From: Amphiscolops sp. MND2022
Lineage: Eukaryota
DNA: 64,000 nt
Assembly (NCBI GenBank): GCA_964187785.1
Contig: OZ076409.1
Location: forward strand, 25,856,001 to 25,920,000
Direction of reading: 5' to 3'
Shown: positions 1,931 to 59,650 of the stretch, piece after piece
How positions within the stretch are numbered: the stretch's first letter is position 1
How the letters are laid out: the number at the start of each line of letters is the position of its first letter
Notes under the pieces: generated by a model
What the model saw: only the letters and a program-made list of their open reading frames with translations
What the model was told of the DNA's origin: nothing
Database searches by the model: none
Made by a program: the position numbers and the translations under genes

Positions 1931-1942
1931 TGGCGCAGTCAG
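1931..1942 (+). promoter_or_regulatory. Primer binding site TGGCGCAGTCAG, tRNA-Ser-like
   Basis: TGG immediately after the LTR CA; resembles TGGCGCAGTC Ser-tRNA PBSs of insect gypsy-type elements. Confidence 0.75.
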
Positions 1943-1982
1943 CCGATTTTTAAACTGTGTAAACCCTTCATAACGAAAAATA

Positions 1983-7205: not shown

Positions 7206-7349
7206 AACAACCGGGTGTAATAAATTATATGTATATTACAGGAAACTTGTGGAACAGGCACAAAGGAACACCTCTACCCGAGAAGGTCCAAAAGACATCC
7301 GATTTCTTTCCCGAAGAGAATACACCCCCAGGACCATCAAGCCAGGACT

Positions 7350-7368
7350 GAGAAGAGAGAGGGGGAAA
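7350..7368 (+). promoter_or_regulatory. Polypurine tract
   Basis: GAGAAGAGAGAGGGGGAAA directly before the 3' LTR TG. Confidence 0.9.
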
Positions 7369-7582
7369 TGTTATATTCGGTTCATACCGACTTGACCTCT
7401 ACCGTAAATTCGGATACCAGCAGTCTAGAAGATAGGAGTTGTTTACCAACAAACTCTAAATAGACTCTCATACCATACATACATTTATACATTTGTTTTG
7501 GTTACAATACAGTGATACAAACATAGATCTATCTCTTTTAACAATTTCCTTTTCTCTTAGCCTATACCCTTAGAATAGAACA
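7369..7582 (+). repeat. 3' LTR of Mag-like element
   Basis: Direct repeat of 1717-1930. Confidence 0.95.
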
Positions 7583-11500: not shown

Positions 11501-14500
11501 CATTCACCCCATGATCATTTCACCCCAGTGAAAAAAAGTGGAACACGAAAAAACTTCGAAGATTCTCACCATATTTTTGTTGCTCGTTTGTATTTGTAGG
11601 GGAGAAAACTTGCATTAAAATCGGGGGTTTACCAAACAATTTAAGCTTGTTCCAGGGCTTCAAGTGTCAAAACAATTTTGTGTTCGGCGATAAAAAACAA
11701 GGTGTATCTGGGGATAAGGAACATGGTCCGAAACTTTTTCTTTTGAAACCATACCAGAAAGTAGTCAATGATAGCAATGATTGCACAATTATTGTTAACT
11801 ATTAAGATGATTATCAAGACTTGATAATCATTAGGATTCAATAACACTAAATGATTCCTAATAGATTTAGATAAAATGAGACGTTTAACAGAACGTAATG
11901 GCCGACAACAAAGTTTCTGGCGACGAAATGTCCGACAAAGAAATGTCTGGCGACGAAATTTCTGACGACGAAATTTTTGGCAATCTTATTTGACATTTAA
12001 ATAGCACAAAATTTTTCTGCGTTCCGTATTTTTTTGGTTCCCTAGTTTTTTCCGAGATTACAACGAGTGCTAGCGTAAATGACAAAAAACCGTAGTTGAC
12101 GGAGAAAAACAGAGTAAAAGAGCAACCGTGAGCTCTGTGACTTTGGGCAAAACGCTTTGAAATCACACTTTCAAGCCGGCCATCACTTTACCAATCAACT
12201 TCAAATGTGATACCTGTCGTGACTATTGGTCATAATGTCTTCTTCATGACCATCGTCACTAGACTGAGAATTCTCTGAATTTCTCCTAAAGTAGTCTTAT
12301 CGACTACTGGTTGCCATATTAAGCTTTGAGTTACCTTTCCAAGCGTTTTTAACGAATTTCGCTTCGGTGGTCCTGTTAAGTCCACTGGACCTCTGGTCCA
12401 CTTCTTCCCGAAACACTGGATTTTGGTTGGAAACCAAGTTTCTAATATCAGGCAAAACCTTTTCAGTGATTGCTGAATTAATGACATCAACCAGCTGAGA
12501 ATTAAGTTCTCTTCTCAGTTCATCAATTTTCTTTGTAATCTCAGAATTAACGAGCCTCATAGTCTCAACCGTCGATTCACTATTTTCGTTACTGTTTGAG
12601 TTTAAAAGTGACCTGAAATCCTCACTATTTTGCAGTGGGTCTCCTCTAGTCCCATCTGACCCTAGGTCTATTTCACCATTCCTATCAGAGTCATTTCCTA
12701 ATTCATTTCTTGGATATGATCCAAGCATTACGTCTAAGTTTTCTGTATCAGACATGATGTCTAATTGCCTAGAGCGTCTTTCCTTAGCTCTTTGCTTTCT
12801 AGTAGAAGGCATTGAAGAAATATTTGCTCAGGTAAGAGTATATTCGAGCTTGTATCAAATATCCCAACTTGAACTGAGTATTCAAACAATAACAGAACGA
12901 TATATCACTAAAGCAGTCTACTAAAGCGAAGGTTGACTTGTAGTCTCAAAATGATTAGAACACTGATGGTGATAGATAGCGGTGAGTTGTAGGTTTGTAA
13001 TCATCAATAATCGTCAAGATTCATCCCTTGGGACTAGTGGTCCCCGTATTTATAGTCCTTGCATCATGACATGCAGTAATATGTATAGTCATGTTACTAA
13101 AATTAGCAACTTACATACTAACGTCACTATGACGTAATGCTGTCAAACTAAATATAGACACAAGTACGGGCAAAAGGCCCTGGGAAGTTTACGTCACATG
13201 CTCCTGTAATTCTAAAATTAGCATCTCTACGTGTATTAGATCTAAAAATAGATAAAGAGGAAGGAAAATGGGGGGGAAGAGGCAGTACGCCTTTCATATT
13301 AATGACAGCAAGACTTGTGCTGAGCTCATACTTATATGCACCAATAGTATTGCACTTAGTTAAGATTAATAATCATCAAAGTAAATACACCGACAATAAG
13401 TGGACCGGCAGTCTAATATGACTTGCGTCGCCGCAAAGGCCAGCAAGTAAGTGAATAAGAAAGCTCGCATGTGATTGGCTAATTAAGGTTGCGGACTACG
13501 CGTTCGAATTGACCAACGCGGCGGACAATTCGAACGCGTTTCCTTTACCTTGCCAGTTATCTTGATTATTACAGCTACATTTCATCGATAATTAATACAT
13601 TCTGCACTACTGGTTTACATGTAGAATACACAAGCATAAAGACGTGAATATATATATAAAGTGTACATGCGCAGCGTATAAAATCAACAAACAGAATACA
13701 ATGAATGCTATATCTATGTAATGAATACTAAAATGCAATTGGTACTACAAGTCATACTAAGACCAGTGGACCTTCGGTCCGTAATAGCATAAATTCACAT
13801 TCTAATTGTTTGTGAAAAAAAATATAAGTCATGCACTAAGTTTCCCAGCAGATCAGCGGTATACGCGGCCTAAAGTGGCAGTGTTCCTGGCATATATCTC
13901 AGGTCGTTCTCATCCACCATCACTTGGTAGCTGTTTCCATCACAGGCGGCAGCCTGCGACACTCCCCGGGGGATGACAGTAAACGAGCCTGCAAGCATTC
14001 CTGCCTGAAAGGCGTTTCTTCGTCTGAGTCGGGTATTGTACGTCTCACCCACGAGGTGAGTCTGCTCCAAAAAATTGAAGGTGATCTCCTCTCGTATTGT
14101 TTCAAAAGACTTCCCACACACTATGCAGTCCCCAAAGGCGACTTGGTTCGGCAGCCCACACACCCCGCTGTTGCTTATGGCAATCCCAGTAATATGTGCG
14201 TTATTGGGCTGATAAGGGAAGTCATCATCTGACCACGGGTTGCCAGCGTTATTGACATTACACCCTTGCTCGTGCGGAGGTGGAGATAGTGGGGTGTCTG
14301 GAATTGGGCTAATTCTTGCACACTCAGCAATGGGTCGCTCCTGACTGAGTTTTCTGGAATAGCTAGGAGGGTGAATGCCCAATATCTGGTCTACAAGGTC
14401 GCTAGGGGGCTCTGTGTCCGTCTTTATTGACCTGCCATACAATTCCTCCAGTAGCGTTAAGTCACCATCGTCCGTGAATTCAGTGGTCATGGCACGTCCC

Positions 14501-17500
14501 GCTATCCCCAATGGTCGAGTGGACTGAGCCTCGCTGTAACAGGCGATCACTTCTATGTCGCTGTCATAACCTTTCTCGTCTGGGGCTTTTTGTGGATCGT
14601 CCACGTCCATGTCTTCTTCCTCTGAGGATAGATAAGACAGGCTAACCGAGGGGCTAATTAAATCTTCTACTGCAAATTGTAGAGACATATCTGTTTGAAA
14701 TCTCTTTAGTAAGATTTTCTTAGCAATTCTTGAGTATGAAAGTGAGCTGCTGATTTGTAGATTGAGATTCAGAAGAATGGCTACCTCGGGCTGATCGACC
14801 TTAGGTCAGAGGGTCGAAAATTCGCGGGAAAATAAGTTAGGGAAAGTTTCCCTGCAGCCCTCTTTGGTTTCTTAACATTTCCTTATTAAGCGGGTTCCCT
14901 TCTCAATTTCGTTTTGATGATCAGCCGCTTGTAAAGTTGATAAGTGCTTGAGTTTGATCTCAAGTGGTTGTATTAACTATTGAAGAGGTGACAATGGGTG
15001 ATGAGATTGTTTATCATCACTCATTAACACTAGTGAAGTGTCATCAAAGACCGTCGGTCTCAGCGGCTAGCAAAGACCAACTGTCCAATCAGAGCGTGTT
15101 GATAAATGAATAAATAATTCTGAATGGATTTGAATGAAAATGGTAAAATGGCATAAATGAATGAAATTAATAATGGTAATGATGGTAACTCTAATACTGG
15201 AACAAAGGAATGGAAAAGAAATGATTGCTGAATGTACATCACTGGCAGGTTCTGTAACACTGAAGATCATAGTGTATAGGTAATTAAAAGAGCTAATAGC
15301 TTTGGTAATAATAAATGACTTGTATTTTGCCACGACGTCCTTTGATGTAAATGAAATAAACGTAAAATACGATTGAGTAATAATCAGTCTTGAGAGTCAA
15401 GTTGAACGGTAAGAAGTAAAACTTGTAAGTGAGACTTTCAGTCTAATTGCCGTAAAGCATAGTAAACCAGTTTGCTAATTTTCACAGTTCACAGTACGAC
15501 TTTCAAATTGTTAATCCTTTGTTACATTTTGCATTCCCAATTCTAATTCTATCATTCAACAGCAGTTTTAGATCCCCAAATCTGCACAAAATATTTCCTG
15601 CTTGGATAGTTCTTCTAGTTACATCTTCTCGTTGGACTTCGTTTCCAGGACTACTGGTCTAATTGTCCCTAGATCGACGTAGAGTCCACTTTTGAGACTT
15701 CAATCTCGGTTCAGAATTCTTCATCTAGTTCACCCTTCTTGTTTCTCCTAGACAACATTGAACTATTCTTCTACGAGTATTCCAACTTGTTGACAGTACT
15801 CCCGACCAACGTTGTTCATTCCTCGAGATTCTACTAATTGGACTAGCAGTCTAATTGGCATAGGTCACCCTTCCAACAGTATCCGCCGTCTTACGACTTT
15901 GTTTCAGTCTGCTCATCCTTCGTGTCACTACTCCGATTCGGACAGACCAAGAATCCTTTCAGTCAGCCACGTCTTGCTCCACCAATTCTGTTCTCCATTT
16001 GGATAAACATCAGGTTGGTTCTTTCAACTTATTTTGTCAATTTTGAGCTTGATCAGGGCTTCCCATTGACTAGTTTTCACTTCCTCCATCGTGAAATATT
16101 CAACCATAGGTATGAACAAATAATAAGCTTGCTTTCGAAAGTCTTTCAAACGCGATAAGATGGATTTCTTTAACGGAAGTGGATCGCGAAAATTTATTTC
16201 TTTCCGTTTAGGCAAAGAAATGGACGGCCAACCAGAACAAAACGTCACCGAACAGATGGAAATTGACTCCCCAACAGTTGGACAGATGTTAGAGTCTGAG
16301 AACAGAGGGTCGCCAACGGACATAAGATCTATAGTTGAGCTGTCTTCCAATACGGACACTGAAAGCTGCGAAGCCTACATCAGGCGTACAGCTGAGTTGC
16401 TTGAGAGCGCTGAGCAAGATCCCGCTAGTCGTGTAACTGAGATTCCTGTTGAGGCAAAGTCAAGTGTGAGTGAGTTGGTTGCTGTTACTCCTGCGCTGAA
16501 TGAGATGATCCCCGAAGTCCAACTTACAGAAAGCGTCCCTAGAGTCGTCTTCCTGGACAAATCCGATTCGCAAGAAGGGACGAATAACACCACCATCGGA
16601 AGACAGGACCTTACGTCAGCAAGCAAAGTAGTTGACCAAAACCTGATGGCATCTAATCCTGAAGTCGGGGTTGTTGCTACTACCACTGAGGGCCCGTCTC
16701 AGCCTGCTAACATAGGGCTAGTGGAACAAGTCCTTGAGGAGCCGCAAGTTACTCCCAACCTTCAAGGAGCACAGGAAGGGAGACAAGAGATCGATGCTTC
16801 TGGGTCTGGTGATCCGCAAGTCAGCAAAGGGCCAATGGACTACCGGTACCAAACAGATGAAGACTCTTGCTTTGAGATGGAGACCGACACCGGATCTATG
16901 GCTAGGTCTACCTTGGGACAAGCGCTGTATTGCCCGGCAAAGGTTCGTGAGATTTCTTGCCGCGATGAATCTAGTCATGATTCAAACGTTGCCGATTTGC
17001 CACCCATCACTGATCCGCCACCGTTGTCAGGTACCAGCAGGGTTATCATCAAACAATGTTTCACAGAAACAAACCCTATCTGCCTTGATCCAGGACACCC
17101 TGTCATTGCGCTAAATCAGGATCAAATTACCAGCATCCTCAGAATTGTAGCAGACGAAAGTGCCCGAGCGTCTTTTGAGATGCTTAGCAGCGTAGTGGAA
17201 CGGGCGAGCCGATTGAACTTGGGTAGTCCTGCAAAAACTGCTTCTAGAAGGCGTGTTCCTTCGATGTCTGGCCATGATACTGACACAGATATCGGAAGTG
17301 ATTCCGTAGCTACCTACTCCACACGTAGAGGCGGCGCAAGTTCAGGCATGACCAGTGAGGCTGAATCCCAACCGGACTTCCAATCAAGTGTAGCGATGCC
17401 TGCTCCTCCGACCACTGCCAGCAATCAACAGGTAGACTTAGAGACTGACCCACATTCTTCTGCCGTGTCCAGCCCTGGGGCTCAAACCCTCGCCAACGTG

Positions 17501-20500
17501 AGACAGGAGGCTATTAACGAGCAACGCCAAGCCCGGAGACAAACTTCATCTCGCACTCGACCTAGGGGCCAAGCACGACCCAGGAGACGAATAGGCCGAG
17601 TGATGAAGGAGGAGTACTTCGAGACAATGCCTTGGACTAGAACTTTCGTGTCTGGGCCAGTTGATCCGAAATGGAACAAGCACAAGATCTACTGCCAGAT
17701 CTGCAAGTGCAATGTCTCAATCCGTGCAAAGGGTCCAAAGGAAATCCTGCGACATTTCGCGACGGAGCGTCATCTGCGTAAAGATCAGCGCTGGAGGTAT
17801 GAGTACCTCACTATTGAAGACCCCCTTACTAAGCGACGCAGATACCAAGTGAGAGGTCAAGATGGTAAAGTGCTCTCCAATTATCAACTCCAGCTGGAAC
17901 TGCCTCACTTCATTAACTGCGAACTAGTAGACATTGGGGAGAAGTTGCCATTCTACGACGAGGCAATGGCAGGCGTGGATTATATGGCATCGTCACCGCA
18001 AAATCGTGCCAGACTGCAAATTTCTGTGCTCGGCTGTTTCTTACCATTGTCTGGAGACGTCCAAGTCCTGCGTGGTCTCTGGCAACAAATTGGCATTGCA
18101 CTGAATCATCAGGCCATCACCAGTGATATCGACTGGAGCACAACTAGACTCTCAGTAAGTAGTCTCTTCACGTCTGATTGACTTCTAGTCCTATCCCTAT
18201 ATCATGCAAGCTTGACTAGATTTGATAAGTCACAGTCCATGATTTGAACAATAGTTCTTGAGTGGGCACATGTTCCGGTTCGTACTAATCTAAGGATGTG
18301 TTTAAGGTGTTGTTCCATCATCTATTCACACAAATCATTCCAATCATTGGCAATGATATCCTGACGTCCGGACAATTCTCTGTAGAATTCGAACCACAGG
18401 GGGTTTTCCTCTTGCTTCACGTCAGGTTCTGGAAAGCTGACAAATTGTGCCGGGTCTACTTACTGCGAACCGGCAGGGCCAGTGGACAAACATCAGCCGA
18501 AGTCAGCCTTGTGTCTACCCTTCTTGCAGCGATATCTGCTGAGGCTGATCTAGTGTGCTGCTCTGGGGCTACATATGGCCTAGTCCATCTGTTAGATCGG
18601 TCCCCACTCACCAGACATGGGGTACAGCGACCAACCACTTTCGACGAGATTGCGATCAAGAAGTTGATGCACAAAGACAGTTTCTCCGTGTTTGGACGCA
18701 TTGACTTCTTTTCAGTGTTACAGTACTTGGTTGTCTGCCTGAGTGGAAGTCTAGAGATGGAATGGACTCTCTTCACCCCTGAGTTGACTAAGGTAAGTCC
18801 CTCAGTCTATGTGCCTAGTACCGCCCGAAGCTTGGTCCGGTTTGACGTGGGGTTTTCAATTTAGGCCATTAAAACTTGCAAGCTTGACGTGTCCACAATC
18901 CCAAAATTGTGTCAGGAGTTGATGGCTAACTGGAAAACGGTGATCACCTACCTTTCCGAGCATTCACCTCAACAGCAAATGCAGGGAGTCAGAAACCAGG
19001 TTGGTCAATTTGCGACAGCTAGACTCATAGTCCCTAGTAGGGCAAATCTCGATGGCTTTCATTTCTTTTCAGCCCCAAAACTTCGAACGATCTGTCATTC
19101 ACGATGACTTCTTTCCTTGCAGACTTGAGTTCTTTGGGAAGCTTGTCCGCGATTGTTAGTACTCTAATTCTCCTTGCACATTGGTTTCCACATGGCTTCA
19201 TAATAATTCAATAGGATGCATCTGACTGGAACTGGGCTGCGCCTTGTCGAATTTCCAATCTAAGCTTGACTGTCCCAAAATAAATCCTCTTAGTCCTAGT
19301 TACGACAATGGGACCATAGGTCTTTTAAGGCATAATCTGGTTTCATGGTTGATTCACTGTTTCAGACACCACCAACTTCTCACTCAGTCTCAGTGGCCGG
19401 CGAGACAGGGCCTTCTACTCCTTCCGACAGCTTTGTCTCTACCTTCGCAAATTGGCTAAGCGCGTTGTTCTCCCCACTGCTTTGCCTGCTGAAGAAGACA
19501 TCGCGAGTATCTTGGACCTGGATACCACAACTGCTCTGGCCCTCAGCGTCCCCGTGTTTCTCAGCAGAACCAAATTTGGAGCGAAACTTGACCATGCCTG
19601 CAAGTTGAAAGCAGAGATTGAGCAGCATGAACAGAAAGGAGAGAAGACGTCAATCGACACATTGAAAGAGAAGGCTAAGGAAGAATTTGGACGTTTGGCC
19701 AGGAGTTACGTGACTCATCTGTTCAAAGAGACGCGTAGTCACTTCAATTTCACCACCAACATCGCCCAAGGTTTGGCCAGCTTTGACCTGGAAATCCTCT
19801 TGAAGTTGCCTCTCACTCTGGCCACGAAATGCTTCGGTCAGTTATTTACCGTCTTCCGTCTTCGTGGGTATTTTTCCCAAGAACAAGAGGCCCCAGCACA
19901 TGAAGAGTACCTGTCCTTCGTCGACGAGTTGCGCGTTAAATTTGCAGAGTTCGATCAACCTACACTATTGATCAAGGATACAATTGATTTCCTCATGGGC
20001 CAAACAACTCTGTCTACACGTCCATTGTTGTTTAGTTGTTTCAAGTTGGCTTGTCTCTGCATAGATGAGCCTTTTAGAGATCTCCCGACAGTCAAGTTCG
20101 GCTCTGTCAACACGGATGATCCTACCAGCAAGCTAGTGGACATAGTGCTGCCAGTGCAATCGTTCTTTAGCCAAGCTGTTAATCCAGTTGAGTCAGTGAC
20201 CAGCGATGCCTCGATCTCCGAATTCCTCGAAATGGAGTCTACTTTCGGTCGCACTGCGCTTGGCGACACGTATGACCCGTGGTCGGGTTTGGACAATTTC
20301 GGGAGGACTGAGATTTTGTCGAAGTTGGATCCTGAACGCAGACTTCCGAGCAAAGCTGGCAAGGTGGGCGCTTCCAGTACTGTCACAGTCCAGCAGTCCC
20401 CCAGTACCCTACAGTACCCTAAGAAGAATGTCCGTCCTACTCATCTCTTGTCAGATTCCGAATTGGTCCAGACTGCTAAGAGTCTGCGTCAGTGTGGCAG

Positions 20501-23500
20501 TAAAGACTAATTGTACACAATGTGCACATATATAAACTTTAAACTGTAAACTATTTATCCATATTTTCTTTTGTTCTGCCAATGTTGCTTGTGGCTTTAT
20601 TATTCGTCGCTAAGTCAGTTTGTCGGCACCTTATTAATTGTCATAAAGTGAAGTCAAAATAGTCCCAAGTAAAGAATACATGTCCTCAAGGGCAGAGAGA
20701 GAAAATTGGGACGTAGTAAATAAATGTTCTGACTAGTATCTGTATTCTTCTGAGTAATTAGGGGTAGGGTTCGGACGGAGGTTATATCTCCCTCCTCTAG
20801 GGCTTTCATTTTCTACAATCATTTCGTCGTTTTCGCTTTCTGATACTTCGGGCACGATAGTATCGCTCCCCCCTGATGAAGTTTCCTCACCAGGAATTGA
20901 GTCATCATCGGAATCGGGCATGATTCGCTCAGGAAGAGTTTCTTCCGTCTCGTCATGTCTAGTGGACTGTAGGTCCACATCGGTCAAGATCTGATCTGGC
21001 TGGTCGAAGTTAGTATCTTCGCCGCTCGTAATTTCTGGTCGTTCAGTTGATTGCTCGTAGGTCGGTTGACGTCGAGTGGACGCGAAGTCCTCAAAGTTCG
21101 TTTCCCACGTGATTACGTAGAGATCATCTTGGGGAATGACAATTTCATCGTCTGGCTGTAAATTCCCTTCTGGGCGAACGTCCTGTAAGTCTGTATTAGG
21201 CTCATATTTTCTGAGACGTATTCTGTGTAAAATTTGCGTTTTGTTGGAATTGAGTTTGCGAACTATATAATTATCGTTTGGTAAAACTTTTTCGATAATG
21301 TAAGGGCCAATCCAACGGAATTCGCGAAATGGGATTTTTGATCCTTGATGGTCAGCTATAGGTTGTAGAATGAAGCAATAATCATTGAGTTTCAAAGGTG
21401 CTGCTTTGGCCTTTCGGTCATAGTATTCTTTGTACTTCAAATAAGACTGCATAATATTTTTCTTTGTGGAATCAATCAAAACCTGTGATCTACGTTGGAA
21501 TTCCTCAGCAAAGTCCGTGGTGGGAAGGACCTGTGGGTTTGGGTTGAGCCCCAATTTATGGTCTAAAATATTGTACGGTATGCGGCCATGAAATATCCTT
21601 GATGGTTCGCAGCCCAACGTCGAGTGGTAGGACGTGTTGTAATTTAGGACTGCTAACGGTAAGTACTTGTGCCACTGACGTCTATACTCCCCTGAGGCCA
21701 TTTTGAGGTTAGTCTTAAGACTGGCATGAGTTCTTTCTAGCTTTCCTATGGTCTGTGGGTGTTTCGTCGTCGCACATTTAATTTGAATGCCCAAAATTTG
21801 CGCAATTTCAGCTACTAACTTTGATGTGAAGGCTGATCCTTTATCGGTAATCAAAGTCGTCGGCAAATACGTATGTTTGGTCATGATGTCGATAATGACC
21901 TTAGCGGTAATTGCAGCTGAAGCATCAGTAACTGGGTAAGCGAACAGGTAACGTGAAAAAACGTCCATGGCAGTAATAATATTTTCGTAGCCTCCGCTCG
22001 GCGGGAGGTTCGGTAATAGGTCTATTTGCATAGCGTCTTCTGGACCCAAAGTCCACTCTGGCAAATTGAGGAGCTCAGGATTTATTAACTCATTTGGAGT
22101 TCTTTTATCTTTTATGCAGGTTTCACATCCATTAACCCACTTGCGGACGATTTTCGCTATTCCAGGATAATAATATTTGGAACGAATTTCTTGTAACATT
22201 TTTGCAATGCCCGGATGGCGATTGGCCTTCCCGTGAAGGGATTCTAATAATTCAGTTACTAGGTGTTTTGGTAAGAGCACTTGGTTGTATTTGACAGTGC
22301 CAGTTTCGTCGTAATACTGCCTCGTGATGATTTCGTTTTGAATGGACAGTCGGTCTAGTTGGCGTAGGTAGTGCTGATATCTTGTATCTTGTATCAAGAT
22401 TGTTTCAGAATACTCTTCTTTTTGAATTTTGAGCTTAAGTTGTTGTAGTATAACGTCATTGTTTTGCTCTATAGTCACAGTGTTGGTATTGGCTAGTTTT
22501 TGACAAATGGGTAATTTTTGATAATTGCTGTGATGAGTGGTAAATTTTTGAAAAGAAATATCCGGTAATTGATTGGAAGGATTGTCTCGTGATTTTTTCT
22601 TCCTTTGCCAGATTTGCTCTTCTGTCTCATCTTCATCGTCAGTATAGAAGATTTGTTCTTCTTCTGTGATCCCTGCTGATTGGACGTGAAGTTCAATTGG
22701 CGTAGTGGGAATATCTTCTCTGATGCGAAGAATCAATTTCTCTTTTGGTGATATTTCTAGGCGTGATAAGTAGTCTGCGGCTGTGTTGTTTTTACCGGGA
22801 ATGTGTGCTATTGTGAAGTTAAATTGAATAACGTAATCACATGCGTTCCACAACGTTGGTGGTATTATCTTTGTTTGAAAAAAACGCGTGACGGATTTGT
22901 TATCGGTCAGTATAATTACCGGCTTTGGCGTCCCCCAAAAGATGTGTCCAAATTCCTTGAACGCAAAGAATATGGCTAAGAATTCTTTTGCATAAATGGA
23001 CATTTTCAATTGTGCGGGACTAAAGGTCTTTGACCCGTAAGCTACCGGAGCAAACGCCTTCCTCGTTGAAGTATATTTTTCTTGTGGATCATCCTCAATT
23101 AGGACTGCGTACCCAGCGGCCATAAAGCTGGCGTCGGTCATTAGGGCTATTTGCTTGTTCGGTAGCGGCTGTTTAAGTGCTAATTCACAACAGCGGTCAA
23201 GTGCTTTGTTGATATCGGTAAATTTCTCCAATAGGTCCGGTGTTACTAGGACTTTTTCATCATTCTTTAATAATTTGAAGAATGGTGTTAGTCTCTCTGA
23301 TAGCCTGGGAATATAGTTACGATAGTAGTTGAGAAATCCCAGGTATCTCTGCAGTGCTTTCTTTGATTTCGGGAATTTCGTGTTTTCTAGGAAATTTTGG
23401 ACTCGTGGTCGCTGTGGACGTACTCCGACTGGCGTGATCGTTCGACCCAAAAAGTCGATTTCTGTCGCTCCGAAATGACATTTGTGCATTGTGAGCTTCA

Positions 23501-26500
23501 ATCCCGCTTCGCGGATGCATTGGAAAGTGGCCCGCAGGTTCTTTATGAGTTGTTCGGCGTCATTTGCAGCAATGCCGATATCATCGACATATTGAGCACA
23601 TTGGTCAGCCTTAATAACTTTGTCAAGATATTCGCGCATAAAGCTAGAAAAGGCTGACAAAGCACGGCTGAGTCCTTGCGCCAACCTGCGGTAAGCAAAT
23701 GTCCTGCTGGCAAAATTGAACGCTAACATTTCAATGGACCGTTGGTCCGCCATCTGCAAGCAGTGGTATGCTTGCGAACAATCTAGTTTGCAAAATAGTT
23801 TTTTGCCTGCCATATGTTGGGCTGCATCGGTCAGTGTACTGACGGGGTGATTATTGTTAATGTAATCATCCGAAATGAGATTGTTAATCTTGCGAAGGTC
23901 GACCAGCAATCTCAATTTGCCATTGGGTTTCTTTTGGGCAAAGATCGGGCTAGCATATTTGGAAAATGGGAGAGTTGTTATGATCCCATATCGTTGTAAT
24001 AGCGCCAGTTCTACGAGGATATCTTCCTTGAGGTTAATAGGCGTTGGTAGACTTTGACTATAGGCCGGGGAATCGTCTTTTGGGGTTAATTTGACCTTGA
24101 ATTCCTCGTTCATGCCTATGTCGAATCGATGTCTAGCGAATATATCATGGAATTCGACTAGCAAATTTTCAATGCGTGTAATCTCATCTGATTGCAGCAT
24201 AGAATCTGTCCAATCGAAGTTGGCCAGGAATCGTCGTCTGGACTCAGGGTCATCCTGAGGATTGAGCTTCTCTAGCTCTTGTAGATTCAGGAGTTCGGTG
24301 AGAATGCGCTTTTGTATCGGCGTATGTTGTTGTGGATCCCCGGGGTCTTCCGGAGTGGGAAACCAATAGTTTTCCCGAAAATCTTCTGGCTTAGAAGATT
24401 TAATCAAGCTGCTAACGTAAAATGCAGCATTTTCAGGATTGTCCTGCAAAAGGTGCCATGTGGTCACCGGATCTATAGGTTTGACATACTTCATCTGTCC
24501 TGGGGTCATGACAGAGAAGTTGGCGACGTGAGAACCTCTCTTGAGAGTATAAGGGTGGTCGGTAAAGTTATTCAGGTGAATTTCAACTTGACCGGAGGTC
24601 AATGTGACCAGTGCCGCGCAAAAGGCGATGTCTCCATCTTCAGTGAGGGCATTGCTCGGTTGTAATATGCCAGTAACGGTGGTATCATCGTACATCTGGG
24701 AACTTAACGTGACTAGGTGTCTATCATTTGGTGGTATTGTGATGTCCTCCTGTGTACAGATAGGCTCCATGACGTTTGTGTACTTATGATCCGCTGTTTT
24801 CAATTGCATGGAGAAAAATGGGAAATTTAGAACTCCCTGTCTCATGTCCAGTATGGTGTTGTTTCGTTGCAAGAATGAAAGGCCAATCAACGGACTTGTT
24901 AGTTTCTCCATTACAATGAAAATTTCGTGAAATTCTATATCGCCGACCTCAAATTTAAGTTCGACGGTGCTCTTCGGAGTTTCCAGCTGCCCATTAGCTA
25001 CCATTATCTGGAAGTTGGGTGCTGGGCCCTCTTTGACAATAGACTGAGGGGCTAATAATCGGATTTTACGTAGATCAGCTTCGGGGATTGCACTAGATAG
25101 GGCACCCGTGTCTACAAGGCCGTCTAATGTAAGCTCGCCAAAATCCATGGGAAAATAGAGCATACGTCTTTTGTATTTGAGTCCGAGATTGGTTGTGAGC
25201 GGAACATAATCTGGCTCGCCATTTCTGGTAACCAGTGTGTTTACAAATCTTGCCTCGACGGCTGACGTCAGAGAGACTTGTGGTCCAAAAGAATTGAATT
25301 TGGTGTCTGGTTCTTCCTGTGTTGGTAGGACACAGGAATTGGTGTTTGCTTGCCAGGGGTCTACTAGAGCTATGGTCAAGGTATGGTTTAGAGCCCTGTC
25401 TGTCATGGGACAGTCGGGTTCAATTTCAGTTTGAGGTTTGTTAAAGTTTGCGTAAAATTGCAGCTCGTGTTGATTGTAGATTTGAGCGTCCCAGTAGGGG
25501 TCAATGCCGTAGTCGGGGTCAATGTAATAAGGGTTATAGTCAGGTATTAGAGGAAGGGATCGAATATAGTCCGTAGTCGAGGTAAGTCTGTCGGACCTGT
25601 GGTCCGAAGTGCAAAATTGAGTAGGAGTATTTCTCATTTGTTGCTGCCAGTCAGCCGATGAGGTTTTCTTTAGTGAAGAATAATATTCAATATAAAATAC
25701 GGTAGAAGGGTCAGAGATTATATACTGTCTAATTCGTAACTTTCCATTAAATTGGAGTCGTGGCAAAACTAGTTTTTTGAGTTTTTTAATATTGAGGTGG
25801 ATTGTTTATCCTTGGTCTCGTTTTGTCCAGGGGACGCTTCGTCTTGTTTGGCGTCCTCCAGTTTGAGGTTCTTGGGCTTGAGGTGGGCTCCGGCGCCTTT
25901 CCAACACCGTTCCGCCGGGTGATTTGTTTTGCCGCAAGTCGGGCATTTAGGATATTCTTTTTTAGTATCCTGTCCGTCGTTGCGCCTTTGTTCCTCCTTT
26001 CGTTTGAGTTTCCTGCAGTCGTCTTTGACGTGGCCAGGTTTTTTGCAATAGTTGCAAGTGATATTGGGATCAATGCCCGATGAAAGGAGGCCAGTGCCCG
26101 GTCGTGTTGCTGTAGGGGCAGTGGACATTGTAGGTACTGGAATGTCGTCACCTCCCTCAAGTCCATTAAGCTCAAGTTCACGTTCTAAATGAGTGACAAT
26201 TTCCTCGTACCATGCATTTTCAAGTCTTGCCATATTGACGGATCTTTTGAGTTTTGGGGGCAATTTGGCGTACAATAGGCTGTCTATCATAGCTTGAGCG
26301 TTCTCACCGAACGCTTTTTCTGCACCCTGATTCAATTCTTCAAGGAAATCGGGCAGTTTCATAGTGTTTGGGTCAAACACGAGTTTGTGCCATTTGTGTT
26401 TGGCAGTTGCTTGGGATTCTGGTTTGACGTATTTGCGTCTGAAGACTGCAAGTACATCTTCCAAGGTCTGCCTATTAGCGGTGCTGATGTTGCGGAAAGT

Positions 26501-29500
26501 TTGTAGGGCATTCTTCCTCAACAAAGAGTGGAAATGGTTGATTTTCATGGTCTCGGTCATTTCCGGTTGCATCTTTACCATAGTATGGAAAAGATCTTCG
26601 AAGAGTTCAAATTTCTCCGATTTGCCATCGAACGTCAATGTAGTAGTGCTGACAGGTCTTACCATCAGTGTCTGCGTTGATGATTTGTTGTTCATTCCGA
26701 CCAGCACATCTGCAAGACGCCTAATGGGGTCTGAACCATCGTTGACGTCTGTCTCCTGAACCGGAGGGACATTTTCTAAGGTTTGAATTCGTGGGGAATG
26801 GGAATTTTGTGTTTCTTCGCGGGAATGCATGGGCCGTCCAGTAAGGAATTCAGGAACCGTACGAGGGGTAGGTTTGGCTCCTGTCACCATGTCGTGACTA
26901 TTGGTCATAATGTCTTCTTCATGACCATCGTCACTAGACTGAGAATTCTCTGAATTTCTCCTAAAGTAGTCTTGTCGACTACTGGTTGCCATATTAAGCT
27001 TTGAGTTACCTTTCCAAGCGTTTTTAACGAATTTCGCTTCGGTGGTCCTGTTAAGTCCACTGGACCTCTGGTCCACTTCTTCCCGAAACACTGGATTTTG
27101 GTTGGAAACCAAGTTTCTAATATCAGGCAAAACCTTTTCAGTGATTGCTGAATTAATGACATCAACCAGCTGAGAATTAAGTTCTCTTCTCAGTTCATCA
27201 ATTTTCTTTGTAATCTCAGAATTAACGAGCCTCATAGTCTCAACCGTCGATTCACTATTTTCGTTACTGTTTGAGTTTAAAAGTGACCTGAAATCCTCAC
27301 TATTTTGCAGTGGGTCTCCTCTAGTCCCATCTGACCCTAGGTCTATTTCACCATTCCTATCAGAGTCATTTCCTAATTCATTTCTTGGATATGATCCAAG
27401 CATTACGTCTAAGTTTTCTGTATCAGACATGATGTCTAATTGCCTAGAGCGTCTTTCCTTAGCTCTTTGCTTTCTAGTAGAAGGCATTGAAGAAATATTT
27501 GCTCAGGTAAGAGTATATTCGAGCTTGTATCAAATATCCCAACTTGAACTGAGTATTCAAACAATAACAGAACGATATATCACTAAAGCAGTCTACTAAA
27601 GCGAAGGTTGACTTGTAGTCTCAAAATGATTAGAACACTGATGGTGATAGATAGCGGTGAGTTGTAGGTTTGTAATCATCAATAATCGTCAAGATTCATC
27701 CCTTGGGACTAGTGGTCCCCGTATTTATAGTCCTTGCATCATGACATGCAGTAATATGTATAGTCATGTTACTAAAATTAGCAACTTACATACTAACGTC
27801 ACTATGACGTAATGCTGTCAAACTAAATATAGACACAAGTACGGGCAAAAGGCCCTGGGAAGTTTACGTCACATGCTCCTGTAATTCTAAAATTAGCATC
27901 TCTACGTGTAATAGATCTAAAAATAGATAAAGAGGAAGGAAAATGGGGGGGAAGAGGCAGTACGCCTTTCATATTAATGACAGCAAGACTTGTGCTGAGC
28001 TCATACTTATATGCACCAATAGTATTGCACTTAGTTAAGATTAATAATCATCAAAGTAAATACACCGACAATAAGTGGACCGGCAGTCTAATATGACTTG
28101 CGTCGCCGCAAAGGCCAGCAAGTAAGTGAATAAGAAAGCTCGCATGTGATTGGCTAATTAAGGTTGCGGACTACGCGTTCGAATTGACCAACGCGGCGGA
28201 CAATTCGAACGCGTTTCCTTTACCTTGCCAGTTATCTTGATTATTACAGCTACATTTCATCGATAATTAATACATTCTGCACTACTGGTTTACATGTAGA
28301 ATACACAAGCATAAAGACGTGAATATATATATAAAGTGTACATGCGCAGCGTATAAAATCAACAAACAGAATACAATGAATGCTATATCTATGTAATGAA
28401 TACTAAAATGCAATTGGTACTACAAGTCATACTAAGACCAGTGGACCTTCGGTCCGTAATAGCATAAATTCACATTCTAATTGTTTGTGAAAAAAAATAT
28501 AAGTCATGCACTAAGTTTCCCAGCAGATCAGCGGTATACGCGGCCTAAAGTGGCAGTGTTCCTGGCATATATCTCAGGTCGTTCTCATCCACCATCACTT
28601 GGTAGCTGTTTCCATCACAGGCGGCAGCCTGCGACAATACCAATTTGAAAAACGAATGTTTTTATACGGCAAAAATGGGGAAACTGCCCTTCTTAAAAAA
28701 TGAGCATCGAATAACTATCAGTTTTGAGGAAAATTCAATCAAAACCAGCTCGCTACCACCGGAGGACACCTTAGGTTGAAAACAGTGCATACGATCTACC
28801 AACTGAGCTTGGCTGTTGATAATTTTTCAACTGTTGATAGTTTCAAACATTACAAAACAGACAAATTAACAGCGAAAACTCGGAATCCACATTTGTGCAA
28901 AACATTAGGCACTTGTGTTATGCACAATTTTTGACAATGAGATCGCCAATTAACTCCGAAGCATCAAATACAGCATGCCGACAAAAACGTTCCCATTTTT
29001 CGTAGAAAACGCAGCCTATAGCACTGGCTTTTTTAAAGACCAACGAAGTGACAGATTTTATCAGCTTGCATAGCTGAAGCTGTTGCTTCCACTAACTGCC
29101 ACACTAAGGTAACTTCTACTGCCACTTGGCATAGTGGTTAATTAGAATTTTTTGAGGTCTACCAAGCAGAAGGACATGGGTTCGAGTCGCGCCCTTGACA
29201 AATTTTTCGTGCATGTTATATTCGCACGATGACAACTATTTGAAGCAGTTCAAAGCAGCTATACGGGATGTTATAAATCGAAGAATGCCAGCTCACGGTG
29301 AAAACAAATTCTATGTTATGGGAACCTTCCTCGATCCTAACTATCAGCCCTTTCTTTTCAATGACGATCAAAAACAGTTTATAAAGTCTGATTTGATTGG
29401 TTTCGTTCAAGAAGACGCTGTTCAAGTGGCCGATTTTCCTCAAAAAAGAATTCATCCCGTTTTGAAAGAAAAATTTTCTCTCTCTGAAAAATTGAAGCTC

Positions 29501-32500
29501 CAAGCTGTAATGGAAGAGCCTAAACAATGCACTACGGCAAGCAGAATATCGCCTATTGAAAAAGAAATCAATGATTACATGGACATAGGTATTGAAGTTT
29601 CTACAGATGTTTGGGCGTATTGGCGAGAGCACAGAACTAAATATCATATTCTTTCACCGGCTGCTCGGAAGACTTTTTGCATGAAGGCAACCAATACTGC
29701 CAGTGAACGGTTGAACTCAGCAGCTGGTCGAGTCGTGTCCAGCAGAAGAGAAAGATTGTCTGCCGAACACATTGAGCAACTGGTTCTTCTGTCACAGTCT
29801 GCCGCCTGCGATGGCAACAGCTACCAGATTGTGCCTAATGAGATGAGTGACATGCCGTTGCCTGCTGGGGTGTTACCCCTATAGATGAAAGAGACTACAG
29901 GTCCGCACAAAACTACCCCGTTAAATGTGATGTCAGTATAAACTATTTTAAATAGCATTTATATTATTTTACGGACCATCGGTCCACCCGTCTAAAGTAG
30001 ACAGTCTGTCAAACTAATATCCTAGAACTGATTATTCATATCAATTAGCTGTGTATTCATTTGTATTTACGTGCTTAACCATGTAAACCAAATTACCAGT
30101 GAAGTTGATTAAAAATATCAATTTGTAAAGCAACCAAAAGATAGTAAGGAAACGCGTTCGAATTACATCACCGTCAGTATAATCGACGCGTGGTCCTTTC
30201 TGTTATTAACCAATCAGCTTTCAGAAATTTTTTCAATCGCCTGTGCTATACTGTGCTTATTCTCCTAGTTGCCAATAATCGGTCGGACCACCAGTCCGTC
30301 ACATGTAAAATACGTGTAATGTTCATGCTGAAAATCATCTGTGCAAACAATGGCTTAACTAAAGTGGTCCGCATGTATTTAGTCTTGAAAGGCGTGCCGC
30401 CATTCCCCCCCCCCACCCACTGAGCAATTTTACTCTACTTCTAAGAAATGCTGCTAAATATAAATATGACGTAGCAGTGACGTTATCCTTTGAGGGCTTT
30501 TGCCCAGATTTGTTGCTATTTTTAGATACGTGACGCTGATAAAATTTGCTTGTCATGCTTTTCCTACTATATATTGGGAGGCCGTAAGTCTTCTAAAAAC
30601 AATCTTACGCTATTCAACTCAATTCAATTACACTCTGTTCAATGACAATCTCTGATGCAAATTTGGACTTGAAGTCCGCAAATACCTTGTTTGACTTGAT
30701 TCAATATATCCCGTTTTGTTTCTGTTGCATTCATTTCAGTTGGAGTAACTTAGTACAAACAATATAGTGTTATTTGAAAGGAATCTTCTAAATGCCTTCC
30801 ACAAGAAAGCAGAAAGCAAGGGAAAAGCGATCAAGGCAATCAGACGTAATGTCTGATCTAGAAAACATGAATGTCATGTTGGGAAATTACCAAGAAAACC
30901 TATCAGACGTTGATCTGAATGAAAATGTAGAAATGGACTCAAGGTCCAACGGTACAAGGACCGACATGGTCAGGAATTGTGAGGATTTTAGAACATTATT
31001 AGCATCTGAAAATAGAAATAGGTGCGAAATACCTACAGAAGCTAATAGACTCATTTCTGAGGAGATAGCTTGCCAAATGAATAGGAAAATGGATGAACTG
31101 AGAAGGAATTTAGACACGCAAATTACAGAGTCTATTAACTCTGCAATTCATGATTCAATCCTTCCTTCTATCCAAAATTCGTTATCAGGACAAAATAGCG
31201 GGTTAGGTACAAATGTGGATTCAAGGTCCAGTAGATTAAGCAGGAACACCGAAGGTAAAAAGCACCAAAGTGCTTGGGGAGATACCCAATGTAGAGTACA
31301 ATCAAATTCAAACAATCATCCCCAATCTAGAGATAACTCATTAAGCTCATTAGACTGTAGGGATGATCGCGACATGGTGACAGGAGCCATCCCTACCCCT
31401 CGTATGGTTCCTGAGTTTCTTACTGGACGACCCACACAATCTCGAGATAACCCGCAAAGCCAAGACCCTATAGATCCTCAGTCTCCGACCATGTCACCTC
31501 AAGACCAGGAGACCATTGGTCACAATTCGGCTATAGACACTCTCACACGCCTTGCTGATGTTCTAAAGGCATGACCAATAAGCAAACCCCACAAACACTC
31601 ATGGTACGACCCGTCAGTACAACTAAACTGACCTTTGACGGGAAATCTAAAAAAATTCGAACTTTTCGAAGACCTTTTTCATACAATGATAAAAATGCAA
31701 CCACAAATGACTGAAACAATGAAAATTCACCACTTTTATTCCCTCTTACGTAAAAATGCACAAACCTTTCGTAATATCAACTCTGCCAATAGGCAGACAC
31801 TAGAAGACGTACTCGCGGTCTTCCGACGAAAGTACGTCAAGCCGGAAACTCAAGCCACTGCCAAACACAAATGGCATAAATTAGTGTTCGACCCCAACAC
31901 TATGAAACTTCCAGATTTTCTCGAAGAACTCAACCAGGGAGCAGAAAAAGCGTTTGACGAAAATGCCCAAGCAATGATAGACAGCCTTTTATACGCCAAA
32001 CTGCCCCCCAAACTCAAGCGATCGGTAAGTATGGCGCGACTTGAGAACGCCTCATATGAAGAGATCGTCACCCATCTGGAACGCGAACTAGAACTCAACG
32101 GACTTGAGGGAGGTGACGACATTACTGTACCTACAATGTCTACTGCCCCTACAGCGACACGACCGGGAACTGGCCTCCTTTCTTCCGGCATTGATCCCAA
32201 TGTCACCTGCAATTACTGCAAAAAACCTGGCCACGTCAAAGACGAATGCCGAAAACTCAAAAGAAAGGAGGAACAACGACGCAATGACGGGCAGGATACT
32301 AAAAAAGAATATCCCAAATGCCCAATTTGCGACAAAACAAACCACCCGGCGGAACGATGTTGGAAAGGCGCTGGAGCCCACCTCAAGCCCAAAAACCTCA
32401 AGATGGAAGACGAAAAACAAGACAACGCGTCTCTCAGCCAATCCGAAACCAATAACAAACAAACTACTTTTATCTTAAAAAAACCCAAAAAACTAGATTT

Positions 32501-35500
32501 GCCACGACTCCAATTTGATACAAAATTACGCGTCCGACAATATATAATTTCTGATCCCTCTACTGTATTCTACACTGAATATTATTCACCACTCAAGGGC
32601 AACTCATCAACTGACTGGCAGCAGCAAATGAGAATCACCCCTACTCAATTTTATACTTCGGACCTTAAGTCCATCGGACTTGACTCGACTTCACACTCCA
32701 TCCGTCCTCTTCCAGAAATACCAGACTATAACCCCTATTAAACAGATCCGGACTACGGCATTGACCCCTACTGGGACGTCCATCTCTACAATCAACACCA
32801 TTTATCTTTCTGTACCGACTTCACCAAACCCCAAATAAACATTGAACCTGATTGTCCGGCAACCGATGGTGCCCTCAACAGCGTTCTAAAGAACGCATCA
32901 GTCGATGTCTGGCAAACTAAACCCAATCCCTGCACTCTACCGGCACAGCACACCCAGGGACACCAATTTGACAGCTTGGGACCACAGGTCTCTTTGACTA
33001 CAGCAGTCGAAGCACGATTTACGAACACACTGGTCACCAGACAAGGTGAACCAGACTACGTACCCCTGACAACCAATCTCGGACTCGAATACAAAAGACG
33101 AATGCTCTATTTTCCAATGGATTTCGGCGAACTTACATTAGATGGCCTTGTAGACACGGGAGCACTATCTAGCGCAATCCCTGAAGCTGATCTACGTAAA
33201 ATCCGATTATTAGCCCCTCGGTCAATTGTCAAAGAGGGCCCTGCACCTAAATTCCAAATAATGGTAGCCAATGGGCAATTAGAAACTCCAAAGAGCACAG
33301 TCGAATTGAAATTTGAAGTCGGTGATATTGAATTTCACGAAATCTTTATTGTCATGGAAAAATTGACAAGCCCATTGCTTGGCCTTTCGTTTTTACAACG
33401 AAACAATACCATACTGGACATGCGTCAGGGAGTCTTAAACTTCCCATTCTTCTCCATGCAATTGAAAACGGCGGATCACAAGTACACTAATGACATGGAA
33501 CCTATCTGTACTCAGGAGGATATTACAATTCCCCCTAATGATAGACAAATAGTGACATTGGCATCCCAAATGTACGACGATACCACTGTAACCGGCATCC
33601 TCCAACCGAGCAATGCACTCACTGAGGATGGCGATGTCGCCTTTTGCGCGGCATTGGTCACACTGACCTCCGGTCAAGTGGAAATTCCGCTCAATAATTT
33701 CACTGACCACCCTTATACTCTCAAGAGAGGTTCGCACATTGCCAATTTCTCTGTCATGACTCCAGGGCAGATGAAATACGTTAAACCCATTGACCCAGTG
33801 ACCACATGGCACCTCTTACAGGATCATCCTGAAAATGCGGCTTTCTATGTCAGCAGCTTGATTAAATCTTCTAAACCAGAAGATTTTAAAGAAAGTTATT
33901 GGTTCCCTACTCCAGAGGACCCTGGGGATCCACAACAACACACACCCATTCAAAAACGGATACTGAAGGAAATACTCAATCTTCAGGAACTTGAAAAACT
34001 GAATCCTCAGGAAGACCCTGAGTCCAGACGACAATTCTTGACCAACTTTGATTGGACTGACTCGACACTGCAACCACATGAAATTGCACGCATTGAGGAC
34101 TTACTTGTCGAATTCCACGACATATTTGCGAGACACCGCTTTGACATTGGCATGAACGAGGAATTCACGGTTAAACTTACGCCAAAAGACGATTCCCCGG
34201 CCTATAGCCAAAGCTTACCGACACCTATCAACCTCAAGGAAGACATCCTCGTTGAATTAGCCTCACTACAGCGCTATGGGATTATCACAACACTCCCATT
34301 CTCCAAATATGCCGGTCCCATTTTTGCCCAAAAGAAACCAAATGGTAAATTGCGACTATTAGTCGACCTTCGGAAAAAAACAACCTTATTTCAGATGACT
34401 AAATCAACAATAATCATCCTGTCAGTACGCTAAGTGATGCAGCTCAACACATGGCAGGCAAAAAACTCTTTTGCAAACTAGATTGCTCACAGGCATATCA
34501 TTGCCTGCCAATGGCGGACCAACGGTCCATAAAGATGTTGGCGTTCAATTTCGCTAGCAGAACTTTTGCCTACCGCCGATTAGCTCAAGGTCTCAGCCGT
34601 GCTTTGTCAGCCTTTTCTAGCTTTATGCGAGAATACCTCGACAAAGTTATCAAGGCCGATCAATGCGGGCAATACGTCGATGACATTGGCATTGCCGCCA
34701 ATGATGCAGAACAACTCATGAAAAACCTCCGGGCCACTTTCCAATGCATTAGACATGCAGGCCTGAAGCTCACTATGCACAAGTGCCATTTCGGAGCAAC
34801 GGAAATCGATTTCCTGGGCCGAACGATCACTCCGGACGGCGTACGTCCACAACGACCACGAGTCCAAAATTTTCTGGAAAAAAAAACAAAATTCCCGAAA
34901 TCAAAGAAGGCATTACAGCGCTACCTGGGTTTCTTAAATTATTATAGAAATTACATTCCTAGATTATCCGAAAAACTAACACCATTTTTCAAATTGCTCA
35001 CTAAAGGCGAGAAGGTCATGGTAACCCCGGACCTATTGGACAAAATCTCTGAAATTAACAAAGCTCTTGATCGATGTTGTGAACTAGCACTTAAACAACC
35101 TTTGCCCAACAAACAAATCGCCCTGATGACTGATGCGAGCTTTACGGCGGCCGGATATGCAGTTCTCATCGAGGACGATCCGCTTGAGAAATATACATCA
35201 ACAAGGAAAGCATACGCACCGGTGGCCTACGGCTCCAAGACCTTCAGTCCCGCACAACTCAAGATGTCCATATACGCCAAAGAGTTCCTAGCAATTTTCT
35301 TCGCCTTCAAAGAAAGCGGACACATTTTCTGGGGAACACCAAAACCGGTCATTATACTAACAGACAATAAGTCGGTCACACGATTTTTTCAAACAAAAAT
35401 TATTCCACCATCCTTATGGAACGCTTGTGACTATGTTATACAATTTAATTTCACTATTGCCCACATTCCTGGCAAGAATAACACAGCCGCGGTCTACATG

Positions 35501-58400: not shown

Positions 58401-59650
58401 CTCTTTTTCTGTATAATGCCGCATAATCATCGTCAAAATTCCTGCCATTTGCTTGATTTCAGCATAATACCGCATTGAAATAGCTCGTTTTTACAATTAT
58501 TGTATCTTCCGCGTATGAGATTACATAATCGTCTTGTCCTGTTTCAGATACTTCAGCCTTCTCTGAGACCGATTCAGGATATGGAGCTGGGTTCAGACTG
58601 TTCAACCAATTTGCTGTCTTCGTGTATAGTCAGCTTCAAAGTATTTTGCCAGACAGCGTCCAATGAAGCATCTCTGATTGGGATAATTACTTGAAATTGG
58701 ACTTAACCCAGGCAGACCTCCCTTTCAAGAGTGCCGACGATTTCGTTTTGAACTCTGATTTCCACCGACTTGTTACTTCAAGTAAATTACCAAGACCAAG
58801 CAAATTCATCGACCAGTCTATTGCTTTTTACAAAGCTTTCTGTCGCATTCTGTTACAACACAAAATTGTCAAGTCCGATCTTATTCGAGGGCTCTCCTGC
58901 TTTGACTCTGCCATGGTTCTCGAAGGAGGAGAGGATCGGTATATTTCCGCAATAGAGCAGCTAACGAGTCACTTCGCATCGCATGGCAGCATAACTGCAA
59001 GCGATAAGACCAAAGCAATTAGTCAGTACAGGGCCCTGGTGGTCAAGTTTCGATCTTCGCAAATCGATCGGACAGTGGATTGGTTTACATTCCTCTCTGG
59101 CCACTATGAACTGCATTGTCGACCAGAACTGCATCAAGTTTTCAAGTACGCTTGCCTCTGTCTTCCACCAATGGCGAAGTTTCCTGTTCGTTTTGAGGTC
59201 CACATACCAGAACTTGGCCCTGATGAGGAGGTATTTCAGTCCTGTGTAACCTGCATTCAGGTATCTTATGCGACGGTGCCTAATGTGAGCAGTCTGTTTC
59301 GTGACCCTCGATCCAATAATCGTGTCTTCCGCTTGATAGGGAAAGGCAAAGATTTGCTGAGCGATCGCAAATTCTCAGTGTGGAATTTCCTTAAAGGCAG
59401 TGGATTCCGCAGGACCAAATGGCAGACGAAGTTCGAGAATTCATATAAGAGTGTGGTTGCTAGGAGAGAAGAAGCGCTGCTTCCCGACGATTCTGATGTT
59501 CCTTCTGCTAGTCATTCATCTAGTAATGCTAGTTCACCGGCTTCACGAGCTTTAACTGGTAAAGTTACACTGTCATTGCCGCGCTGTGTCGATGAAAGGA
59601 AGGATGATAAACGGAGTAAGGGAAAAGGTGAAAAGACCAAGAAGAATTGA
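55484..59650 (+). pseudogene. Antisense spliced accessory gene of element C; exons 55484-55580, 55870-57257, 57328-57813, 57886-58020, 58094-58175, 58548-59650
   Basis: WWCRVCRIELS...HFRTETH zinc finger; internal exons of 486, 135 and 82 nt exactly as in A. The donor at 57258 reads ATAAGT (mutated) and there is an in-frame TGA at 58664-58666. Confidence 0.8.

Follow-up and report, generated by a model that had tools for sequence, protein, structure and literature searches.

The 64,000-nucleotide window analysed here, positions 25,856,001 to 25,920,000 of contig OZ076409.1 from Amphiscolops sp. MND2022 (assembly GCA_964187785.1), contains a complete Ty3/gypsy long terminal repeat (LTR) retrotransposon, element A, together with a related element B and a distant relative, element C. 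Each of these three related elements carries an additional gene which, in A, is encoded on the strand opposite to gag-pol and is located between pol and the 3' LTR. This antisense gene is a genuine accessory gene, multi-exon and under selection, of a large gypsy family, and its product probably descends from a hAT transposase; if so, the protein is very likely catalytically dead.

Five predicted exons with GT-AG introns, joined from an ATG at 16160, give 1,280 stop-free codons (Table 1). An earlier note on this DNA had correctly recognised antisense coding sequence, but its extent of 17600..20510 was too short, the gene beginning at ATG 16160 and comprising five exons. An interpretation as three separate open reading frames (ORFs) was rejected: the joined frame and the relatives that span the junctions identified the pieces as exons of one gene. 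The three elements have 12 introns between them, 11 of which have GT-AG ends, the exception being the first donor of C. Among 389 related proteins, alignment without a gap was obtained across junctions 1/2 (P0114), 3/4 (P0250) and 4/5 (P0233, P0346, P0259 and P0294), and three of the four junctions are therefore independently confirmed; none of the 389 spanned junction 2/3. Other relatives in the same set read through in-frame inserts of 22–30 residues at the intron positions, and intron content, as judged from these alignments, differs within the family. P0114, P0250, P0233, P0259, P0294 and P0346 each lack one or another of the introns of A, and may represent either genomic or transcript-derived copies.

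Comparison of A with B across six structured exon segments yielded proportions of nonsynonymous differences (pN) of 0.15–0.20 against synonymous proportions (pS) of 0.79–0.94, while the low-complexity N-terminal part gave values of 0.31 and 0.75, and a reverse-strand control 0.32 and 0.33, respectively. Because synonymous sites are saturated, pN is low, and pN and pS are approximately equal on the reverse strand, all exons of the gene are under purifying selection, which is weaker than that on pol (pN ~0.05). The four zinc ligands of the encoded finger are kept in 95–98% of ~71 aligned rows. Conservation between A and B also extends to a stretch of ~260 nt (from 16002) surrounding the start codon and lying upstream of it, a pattern that fits a promoter or 5' leader.

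The protein family is extensive: with 8,000 candidates scored for each query, 223 relatives of exon 1 and 90 of exon 5 were found at the 90% level, and 697 representatives at the 50% level. All relatives with a displayed source are unnamed ENA proteins, and 39 members, located on different contigs, make up the cluster matching exon 1 of A. In a tree built from 128 exon-5 sequences the branches are deep, with A/B and C in separate starred clades. Genomic context was checked for the three copies in the window; no relatives with genomic context were found in the viral and metagenome contigs searched, and a search for full-length relatives of exon 5 (666–2,000 amino acids, aa) returned none.

Structural evidence for hAT ancestry was sought with the two halves of the protein modelled separately, the N-terminal half from residues 456–815 of the homologue P0114 (42% identical to the exon-1 part of A; mean predicted local distance difference test score, pLDDT, 68.5) and the C-terminal half from the 321 residues of exon 5 (pLDDT 91). 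The former model comprises the finger and a helical domain, followed by a helix, three strands, a helix and a strand, the pattern predicted for exon 2. When compared by Foldseek with 350,542 chains, it placed Hermes transposase at ranks 1–3 and 5–9 (best E-value 0.031 over 258 columns). A separate comparison, of the exon-5 model with 48,161 chains, placed Hermes at rank 4 (Z 4.5; root-mean-square deviation 5.5; 177 residues aligned), model residues 1–272 aligning to Hermes 368–609, the part expected after exons 1–4, in the longest alignment among the 50 matches listed (next 128). The fold comparison proposed in the earlier note thus gave Hermes the top rank for the N-terminal half and the longest listed alignment for exon 5, both below threshold.

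A third line of evidence was provided by a hAT reference profile, for which 46 metagenome loci were fetched by means of a hAT C-terminal motif and 23 aligned, near-duplicates and short pieces being left out; all five reference hATs scanned matched Dimer_Tnp_hAT, four above cut-off. The exon-5 profile matched these 23 transposases over 120 columns corresponding to hAT 579–703 (P 0.0012), and a local repeat of the match scored above 20 of 20 block shuffles. In the best local alignment of exon 2, its second strand and the helix after it were paired with their counterparts in the hATs; a forced global profile alignment of exons 2–4 was out of register and could not be used. Feature neighbours of both halves in the Atlas include hAT-family clusters, all below 0.9 and thus leads only, and the predicted domain order is colinear with that of hATs. 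The sequence motifs on which the earlier note had based its proposal were all located where it placed them (strand motifs at 18376-18432 and 18550-18570, C-terminal motifs at 19902-20060), as was the counterpart of the C-terminal motif in element C (ORF 58667-59650).

A substantial body of results nevertheless weighs against this ancestry, and no single test reaches its usual threshold. The Foldseek match of best E-value 0.031 had a template modelling (TM) score of 0.12; in a wide VIA search the N-terminal half attained a best Z of 5.0, with Hermes not among the 50 matches listed, and in a second look Hermes was at rank 10 with Z 3.4. That model is, moreover, of a homologue, has no more than two good rows over exon 2, and falls below pLDDT 50 past residue 280. 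For exon 5, three unrelated chains exceeded the Z of 4.5, which is in a range that helical models, according to the tool, commonly reach; Foldseek returned nothing with an E-value below 0.4 from PDB and BFVD, and a second look among its 314 chains did not list Hermes. The exon-5 profile match had an hhalign probability of 19% and P values of 0.04–0.05 in local repeats, the same profile gave P 0.4 against the window's own hAT fragment used as one sequence, and the profile matches of five other segments (finger, helical domain, exons 2–4) were not significant. Scanning the exons, and sets of 126 and 74 family members, against Pfam gave no hAT or BED match above cut-offs, and searches of PDB sequences with four profiles returned nothing meaningful. 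A hAT origin is nonetheless considered probable because the individually weak results agree both in the identity of the match and in its order along the chain. The profile match and the missing motif would fit the note's claim of a hAT-like C-terminus lacking ERxFS, but Pfam matched none of the 126 members.

In hAT transposases the second catalytic Asp is followed by a C/DxxH motif, and the reference hATs keep the catalytic residues, including C/DxxH. Residues D180, D248, R318, W319 and E572 are essential in Hermes (PMC6027215). At the position aligned with the first Asp, A, B, P0114 and P0100 have Glu and C has Gln; the Asp had been noted as lost, which is so, yet in four of five sequences its replacement is, as aligned, a conservative change. 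No Asp occupies the second position in any of the four alignable sequences (A, B, P0114 and P0100), in agreement with the earlier note. C/DxxH and RW are absent from exons 2–4 of A. Seven residues short of the catalytic Glu the profile alignment stops: in the column reached by extension Glu occurs in none of 119 rows, and it never exceeds 36% in columns 229 to 250. ERxF was not found in the 22 residues from the conserved Cys motif onward in any of 142 proteins, and an ERxFS string was present somewhere in just one of 232 (P0311). These positions, the second Asp, CxxH and RW among them, were set by motif and profile register, and not by structural alignment. An intact DDE triad, named beforehand as refuting, was not found by motif register, and no terminal inverted repeats of at least 30 nt bracket the antisense gene, shorter ones not having been searched for across the whole span. 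The proposal of a catalytically dead hAT transposase within a retrotransposon is therefore partly supported, by motif absence, as set by register, and by a kinship that is convergent but sub-threshold in each test.

The finger was confirmed as C2H2 with conserved ligands, but its assignment to BED was not: across 74 rows there was no PF02892 match, while 48 of the 74 matched another C2H2 model below cut-off and the Atlas lead was zf-BED (0.84). Its best fold matches were the matrin-type fingers of TUT4 and TUT1 (Z 4.8 and 3.7), a modelled likeness that points to RNA no less readily than to DNA as the ligand and counts against a purely DNA-directed function. The palindromic target site envisaged in the earlier note was rejected, as the duplications ATACC (A) and TCTTC (B) are not palindromic; a spaced palindrome with 15-nt arms and a 12-nt spacer is instead located inside the LTRs. 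A 13-nt word from its arms has six matches in the window against 0.05 expected, every one of them within an LTR of A or B, and is conserved between A and B amid otherwise diverged LTR sequence, although binding by a host factor could also account for such conservation. The finger of C differs from that of A, and C has clusters of another short, GC-containing word, which hold 10 of the 15 matches in the window (4.8 expected in all, for a pattern chosen after the clusters were seen). The N-terminal domains of hATs are sequence-specific DNA binders, the words recognised often including CGG or CGC (PMC8097297). On account of the DNA binding by hATs, the palindromic LTR word and the separate clusters of C, the role favoured for the antisense protein is that of a nuclear DNA-binding regulator of the transcription of its own element, to which we would give roughly even chances.

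The corresponding scenario would begin with a hAT transposon inserting in reverse orientation into an ancestral element, between its pol and its 3' LTR, followed by decay of the cutting residues with retention of the fold. Introns lying opposite to the genomic RNA strand would not be spliced out, and would be copied intact with the element because the antisense placement keeps them off that strand. The gene would be transcribed from its own promoter, situated between it and ORF3, the second extra gene, and the protein, via its zinc finger and as a hAT-type oligomer, would bind short repeated or palindromic LTR sites, LTR transcription thereby being controlled or protected. That a whole gypsy radiation may in this way have domesticated a hAT transposase as an intron-bearing transcription or anti-silencing factor, with each subfamily pairing a diverged zinc finger with its own LTR site and introns being gained and lost, is a tentative proposition to which we would assign slightly less than even chances.

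An alternative that retains the hAT origin, and that we regard as unlikely though not negligible, is that the protein does not serve as a simple transcription regulator but works against silencing by the host, or guides the integration complex to chosen chromatin by tethering it there. Precedent exists in the VANC proteins, sequence-specific anti-silencing factors of plant Mutator-like elements. Selection on the whole transposase body, beyond the finger and DNA-binding part, and the clusters of sites inside the body of element C are both in keeping with such a role, and most host CGGBPs are by contrast short or intron-bearing remnants (PMC8097297); against it, the two target duplications available, from two insertions, have no motif in common. 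A role in the handling of element RNA, by export or protection of unspliced genomic RNA in the manner of CERV from Cer1 (PMC10309623), would accommodate the matrin-like finger and the Arg-rich patch, but a hAT scaffold binds DNA, the N-terminal half has BED and CGGBP-type clusters as its Atlas neighbours, and the fold matches of the finger have low Z values, making this a doubtful explanation.

If, on the other hand, the protein were an unrelated zinc-finger and helical accessory protein, its hAT matches would reflect chance or common folds. The uniformly sub-threshold scores, the blank Pfam and PDB sequence searches, and the modest showing of Hermes in the wide VIA search and second look of the N-terminal half would then be expected; that two separately modelled halves single out Hermes from very large libraries, and in the right chain order, with the profile method agreeing for exon 5, renders this improbable. 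Least probable, and largely refuted, is a nested hAT insertion that is carried passively, or a transposase that is still active within the retrotransposon. Insertions into other elements are frequent here, B itself lying inside an ordinary hAT gene, and four of five sequences keep an acidic residue, Glu, at the first catalytic position; set against this are the saturated synonymous change with low amino-acid change, the deep divergence of the family, the same placement in all three elements, and the lack of terminal inverted repeats of 30 nt or more and of catalytic motifs.

Element A has the TG..CA ends, the 4–6 bp duplication and the pol domain order of a Ty3/gypsy LTR retrotransposon, the Pfam residues of its pol being 220–314 for protease, 625–790 for reverse transcriptase (RT), 860–986 for RNase H and 1179–1350 for integrase. 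A dUTPase-like domain at residues 349–432 (E-value 0.0019, below the Pfam cut-off) lies between protease and RT, as it does in rotifer, planarian and fungal elements (PMC5408684, PMC6431247). The near identity of the LTRs, together with the 5-bp duplication, indicates a recent insertion. Identity of A and B as Troyka LTR elements, characterised by CG..CG ends and a 3-bp duplication (PMC12440569), was ruled out by their TG..CA ends and 5-bp duplications. The LTRs of A, B and C start inside the final codons of ORF3 and finish inside gag (~200 codons in for A and B), and the primer-binding site is coding sequence in all three. The usual polypurine tract was not found before the 3' LTR, which is adjoined by at most six purines in A and by none in B; the palindrome CCCCGGGG directly precedes it in both. 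Over gag-pol, B is ~79% identical to A.

In all three elements ORF3 and the antisense gene are arranged head to head, and ORF3 encodes an acidic, Pro-rich protein with a conserved C-x2-C C-terminal domain. Its ratio of nonsynonymous to synonymous substitution rates (dN/dS) is 0.17 between A and B, and it had no match in a Pfam scan.

Table 1. Positions within the window of the three related elements, their genes and candidate sites.
Feature	Position	Strand	Details
Element A, complete Ty3/gypsy LTR retrotransposon	12215..28636	-	16,422 bp; target-site duplication ATACC
5' LTR of A	26890..28636	-	1,747 nt, TG..CA; starts with last ORF3 codons; contains first 199 gag codons
3' LTR of A	12215..13961	-	2 mismatches to 5' LTR (99.9% identical)
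gag of A	25769..27487	-	572 aa, zinc knuckle; primer-binding site within gag reading frame
pol of A	20733..25805	-	Open, 1,690 codons; protease, weak dUTPase match, RT, RNase H, integrase
ORF3 of A, in gag-pol sense	13870..14805	-	272 aa from conserved ATG 14688; extends into 3' LTR
Antisense gene of A, exon 1	16160..18154	+	aa 1-665; low-complexity N-terminus, basic patch, C2H2 finger, helical domain
Exon 2	18307..18792	+	aa 666-827; first and second catalytic Asp positions; predicted RNase H-like core pattern (model of homologue P0114)
Exon 3	18865..18999	+	aa 828-872; expected site of hAT RW motif, no RW there
Exon 4	19073..19154	+	aa 873-900
Exon 5	19366..20510	+	aa 900-1280; helical domain aligned to Hermes 368-609 and hAT C-terminal region, without catalytic Glu motif
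Arg-rich basic patch, candidate nuclear localisation signal	17549..17599	+	From sequence
Zinc finger C-x2-C-x16-H-x5-H, BED-like or matrin-like	17690..17773	+	C512, C515, H532, H538
Spaced palindrome in 3' LTR of A, candidate binding site	13498..13539	.	15-nt arms, 12-nt spacer
Same spaced palindrome in 5' LTR of A	28173..28214	.
Element B, related element	29790..45579	+	LTRs 97.3% identical; duplication TCTTC; gag-pol broken
Antisense gene of B	37695..41981	-	Same four introns as A; exon 2 out of frame
ORF3 of B	42970-44097	+
Element C, distant relative	~51577 to beyond window end
Antisense gene of C	55677..59650	+	21-29% identity with A; intron positions match; stop in exon 5
ORF3 of C	52949-54073	-
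GC-containing word clusters in C	52513-52614, 54919-55033, 58385-58475		LTR; upstream of antisense gene; intron 4

The ordinary hAT transposase gene into which B is inserted, at its 3' end, is represented by an ORF at 29156-29789 (Dimer_Tnp_hAT E-value 9e-12), some 500 nt upstream of which lies the 5' end of element A. A second candidate, ORF 51521-52135 (Pfam E-value 0.086), was rejected as a hAT, since it lies in the LTR of C, at the place occupied in A and B by the beginning of gag. The A/hAT/B block is flanked by an N-terminal piece (8759-9637) and a C-terminal piece (46025-46654) of a sodium:dicarboxylate symporter (SDF) gene, perhaps one host gene that the block has split. Positions 78-630 are 70% identical, in opposite orientation, to the LTR and gag start of C, and are probably a further member of the family, truncated where the window begins. 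At 1714-7582 there is a separate small gypsy element without the extra genes (217-nt LTRs, 99% identical), and two facing arrays of a 15-nt unit, ~600 nt apart at 11270-11982, resemble subterminal repeats such as those of non-autonomous DNA transposons.

Plant Retand/Tat elements and Boty are known to have antisense accessory ORFs in this location, between pol and 3' LTR, their origin being given as unknown (PMC7264820, PMC11963269). As in the Retand/Tat elements (Grande gene23, RIRE2, TRP28/PF04195), where the ORF is present in most copies and its product, predicted or shown to be nuclear, has been proposed as a regulator (PMC7264820, PMC11963269), the gene described here is antisense and lies between the 3' LTR and pol. 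These two systems differ in that a nested-transposon origin is unsupported for the plant ORFs, with no similarity to other elements (PMC7264820), whereas four predicted introns and a likely hAT origin distinguish the present gene; the word intron is absent from the passages of PMC11963269 that were available. PF04195 (TRP28) matched no exon or family member scanned.

With Hermes (PDB 8edg, 2bw3, 4d1q) and DUF4371-bearing hATs the protein shares the predicted order of finger, helical domain and RNase H-like core, followed by a large helical insertion and C-terminal region with weak fold and profile matches to hATs. Unlike Hermes, to which it is 8–14% identical, it lacks the catalytic motifs and possesses a 470-aa low-complexity N-terminus, and, unlike a hAT transposon, its gene has no transposon ends and moves solely as retrotransposon cargo. 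Domestication of hATs by hosts is well known (PMC8097297), and the host CGGBP and ZBED proteins are hAT-derived, intron-bearing and likely non-cutting DNA binders that Pfam can miss (PMC8097297), which the gene reported here would resemble; it differs in being kept by a mobile element, multicopy and mobile, at whole transposase length, and not as a fixed host gene.

Among animal LTR retrotransposons, Cer1 of C. elegans also carries a spliced accessory gene with a nuclear role, CERV, which, unlike the antisense protein, exports genomic RNA and for which the abstract of PMC10309623 mentions no hAT relation. The gypsy elements of bdelloid rotifers and planarians resemble A in their dUTPase-like domain between protease and RT and in having captured extra ORFs, but those extras are env, esterase, exonuclease and others (PMC5408684, PMC6431247); in the available text, 'transposase' does not occur in PMC5408684, nor 'hAT' in PMC6431247. 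The literature searched, which did not extend to Repbase reports, supplements or subscription journals, yielded no description of an LTR retrotransposon with a hAT-derived gene.

How antisense accessory genes of LTR retrotransposons arose and what they do has been described as unknown (PMC7264820), and because the present family offers a traceable donor and named candidate binding sites, that question becomes testable. Variation in intron content provides a natural system for the study of intron gain and loss in a gene copied by reverse transcription. If the proposed origin is true, transposase domestication would be an activity of mobile elements and not of hosts alone, one mobile element having tamed another.

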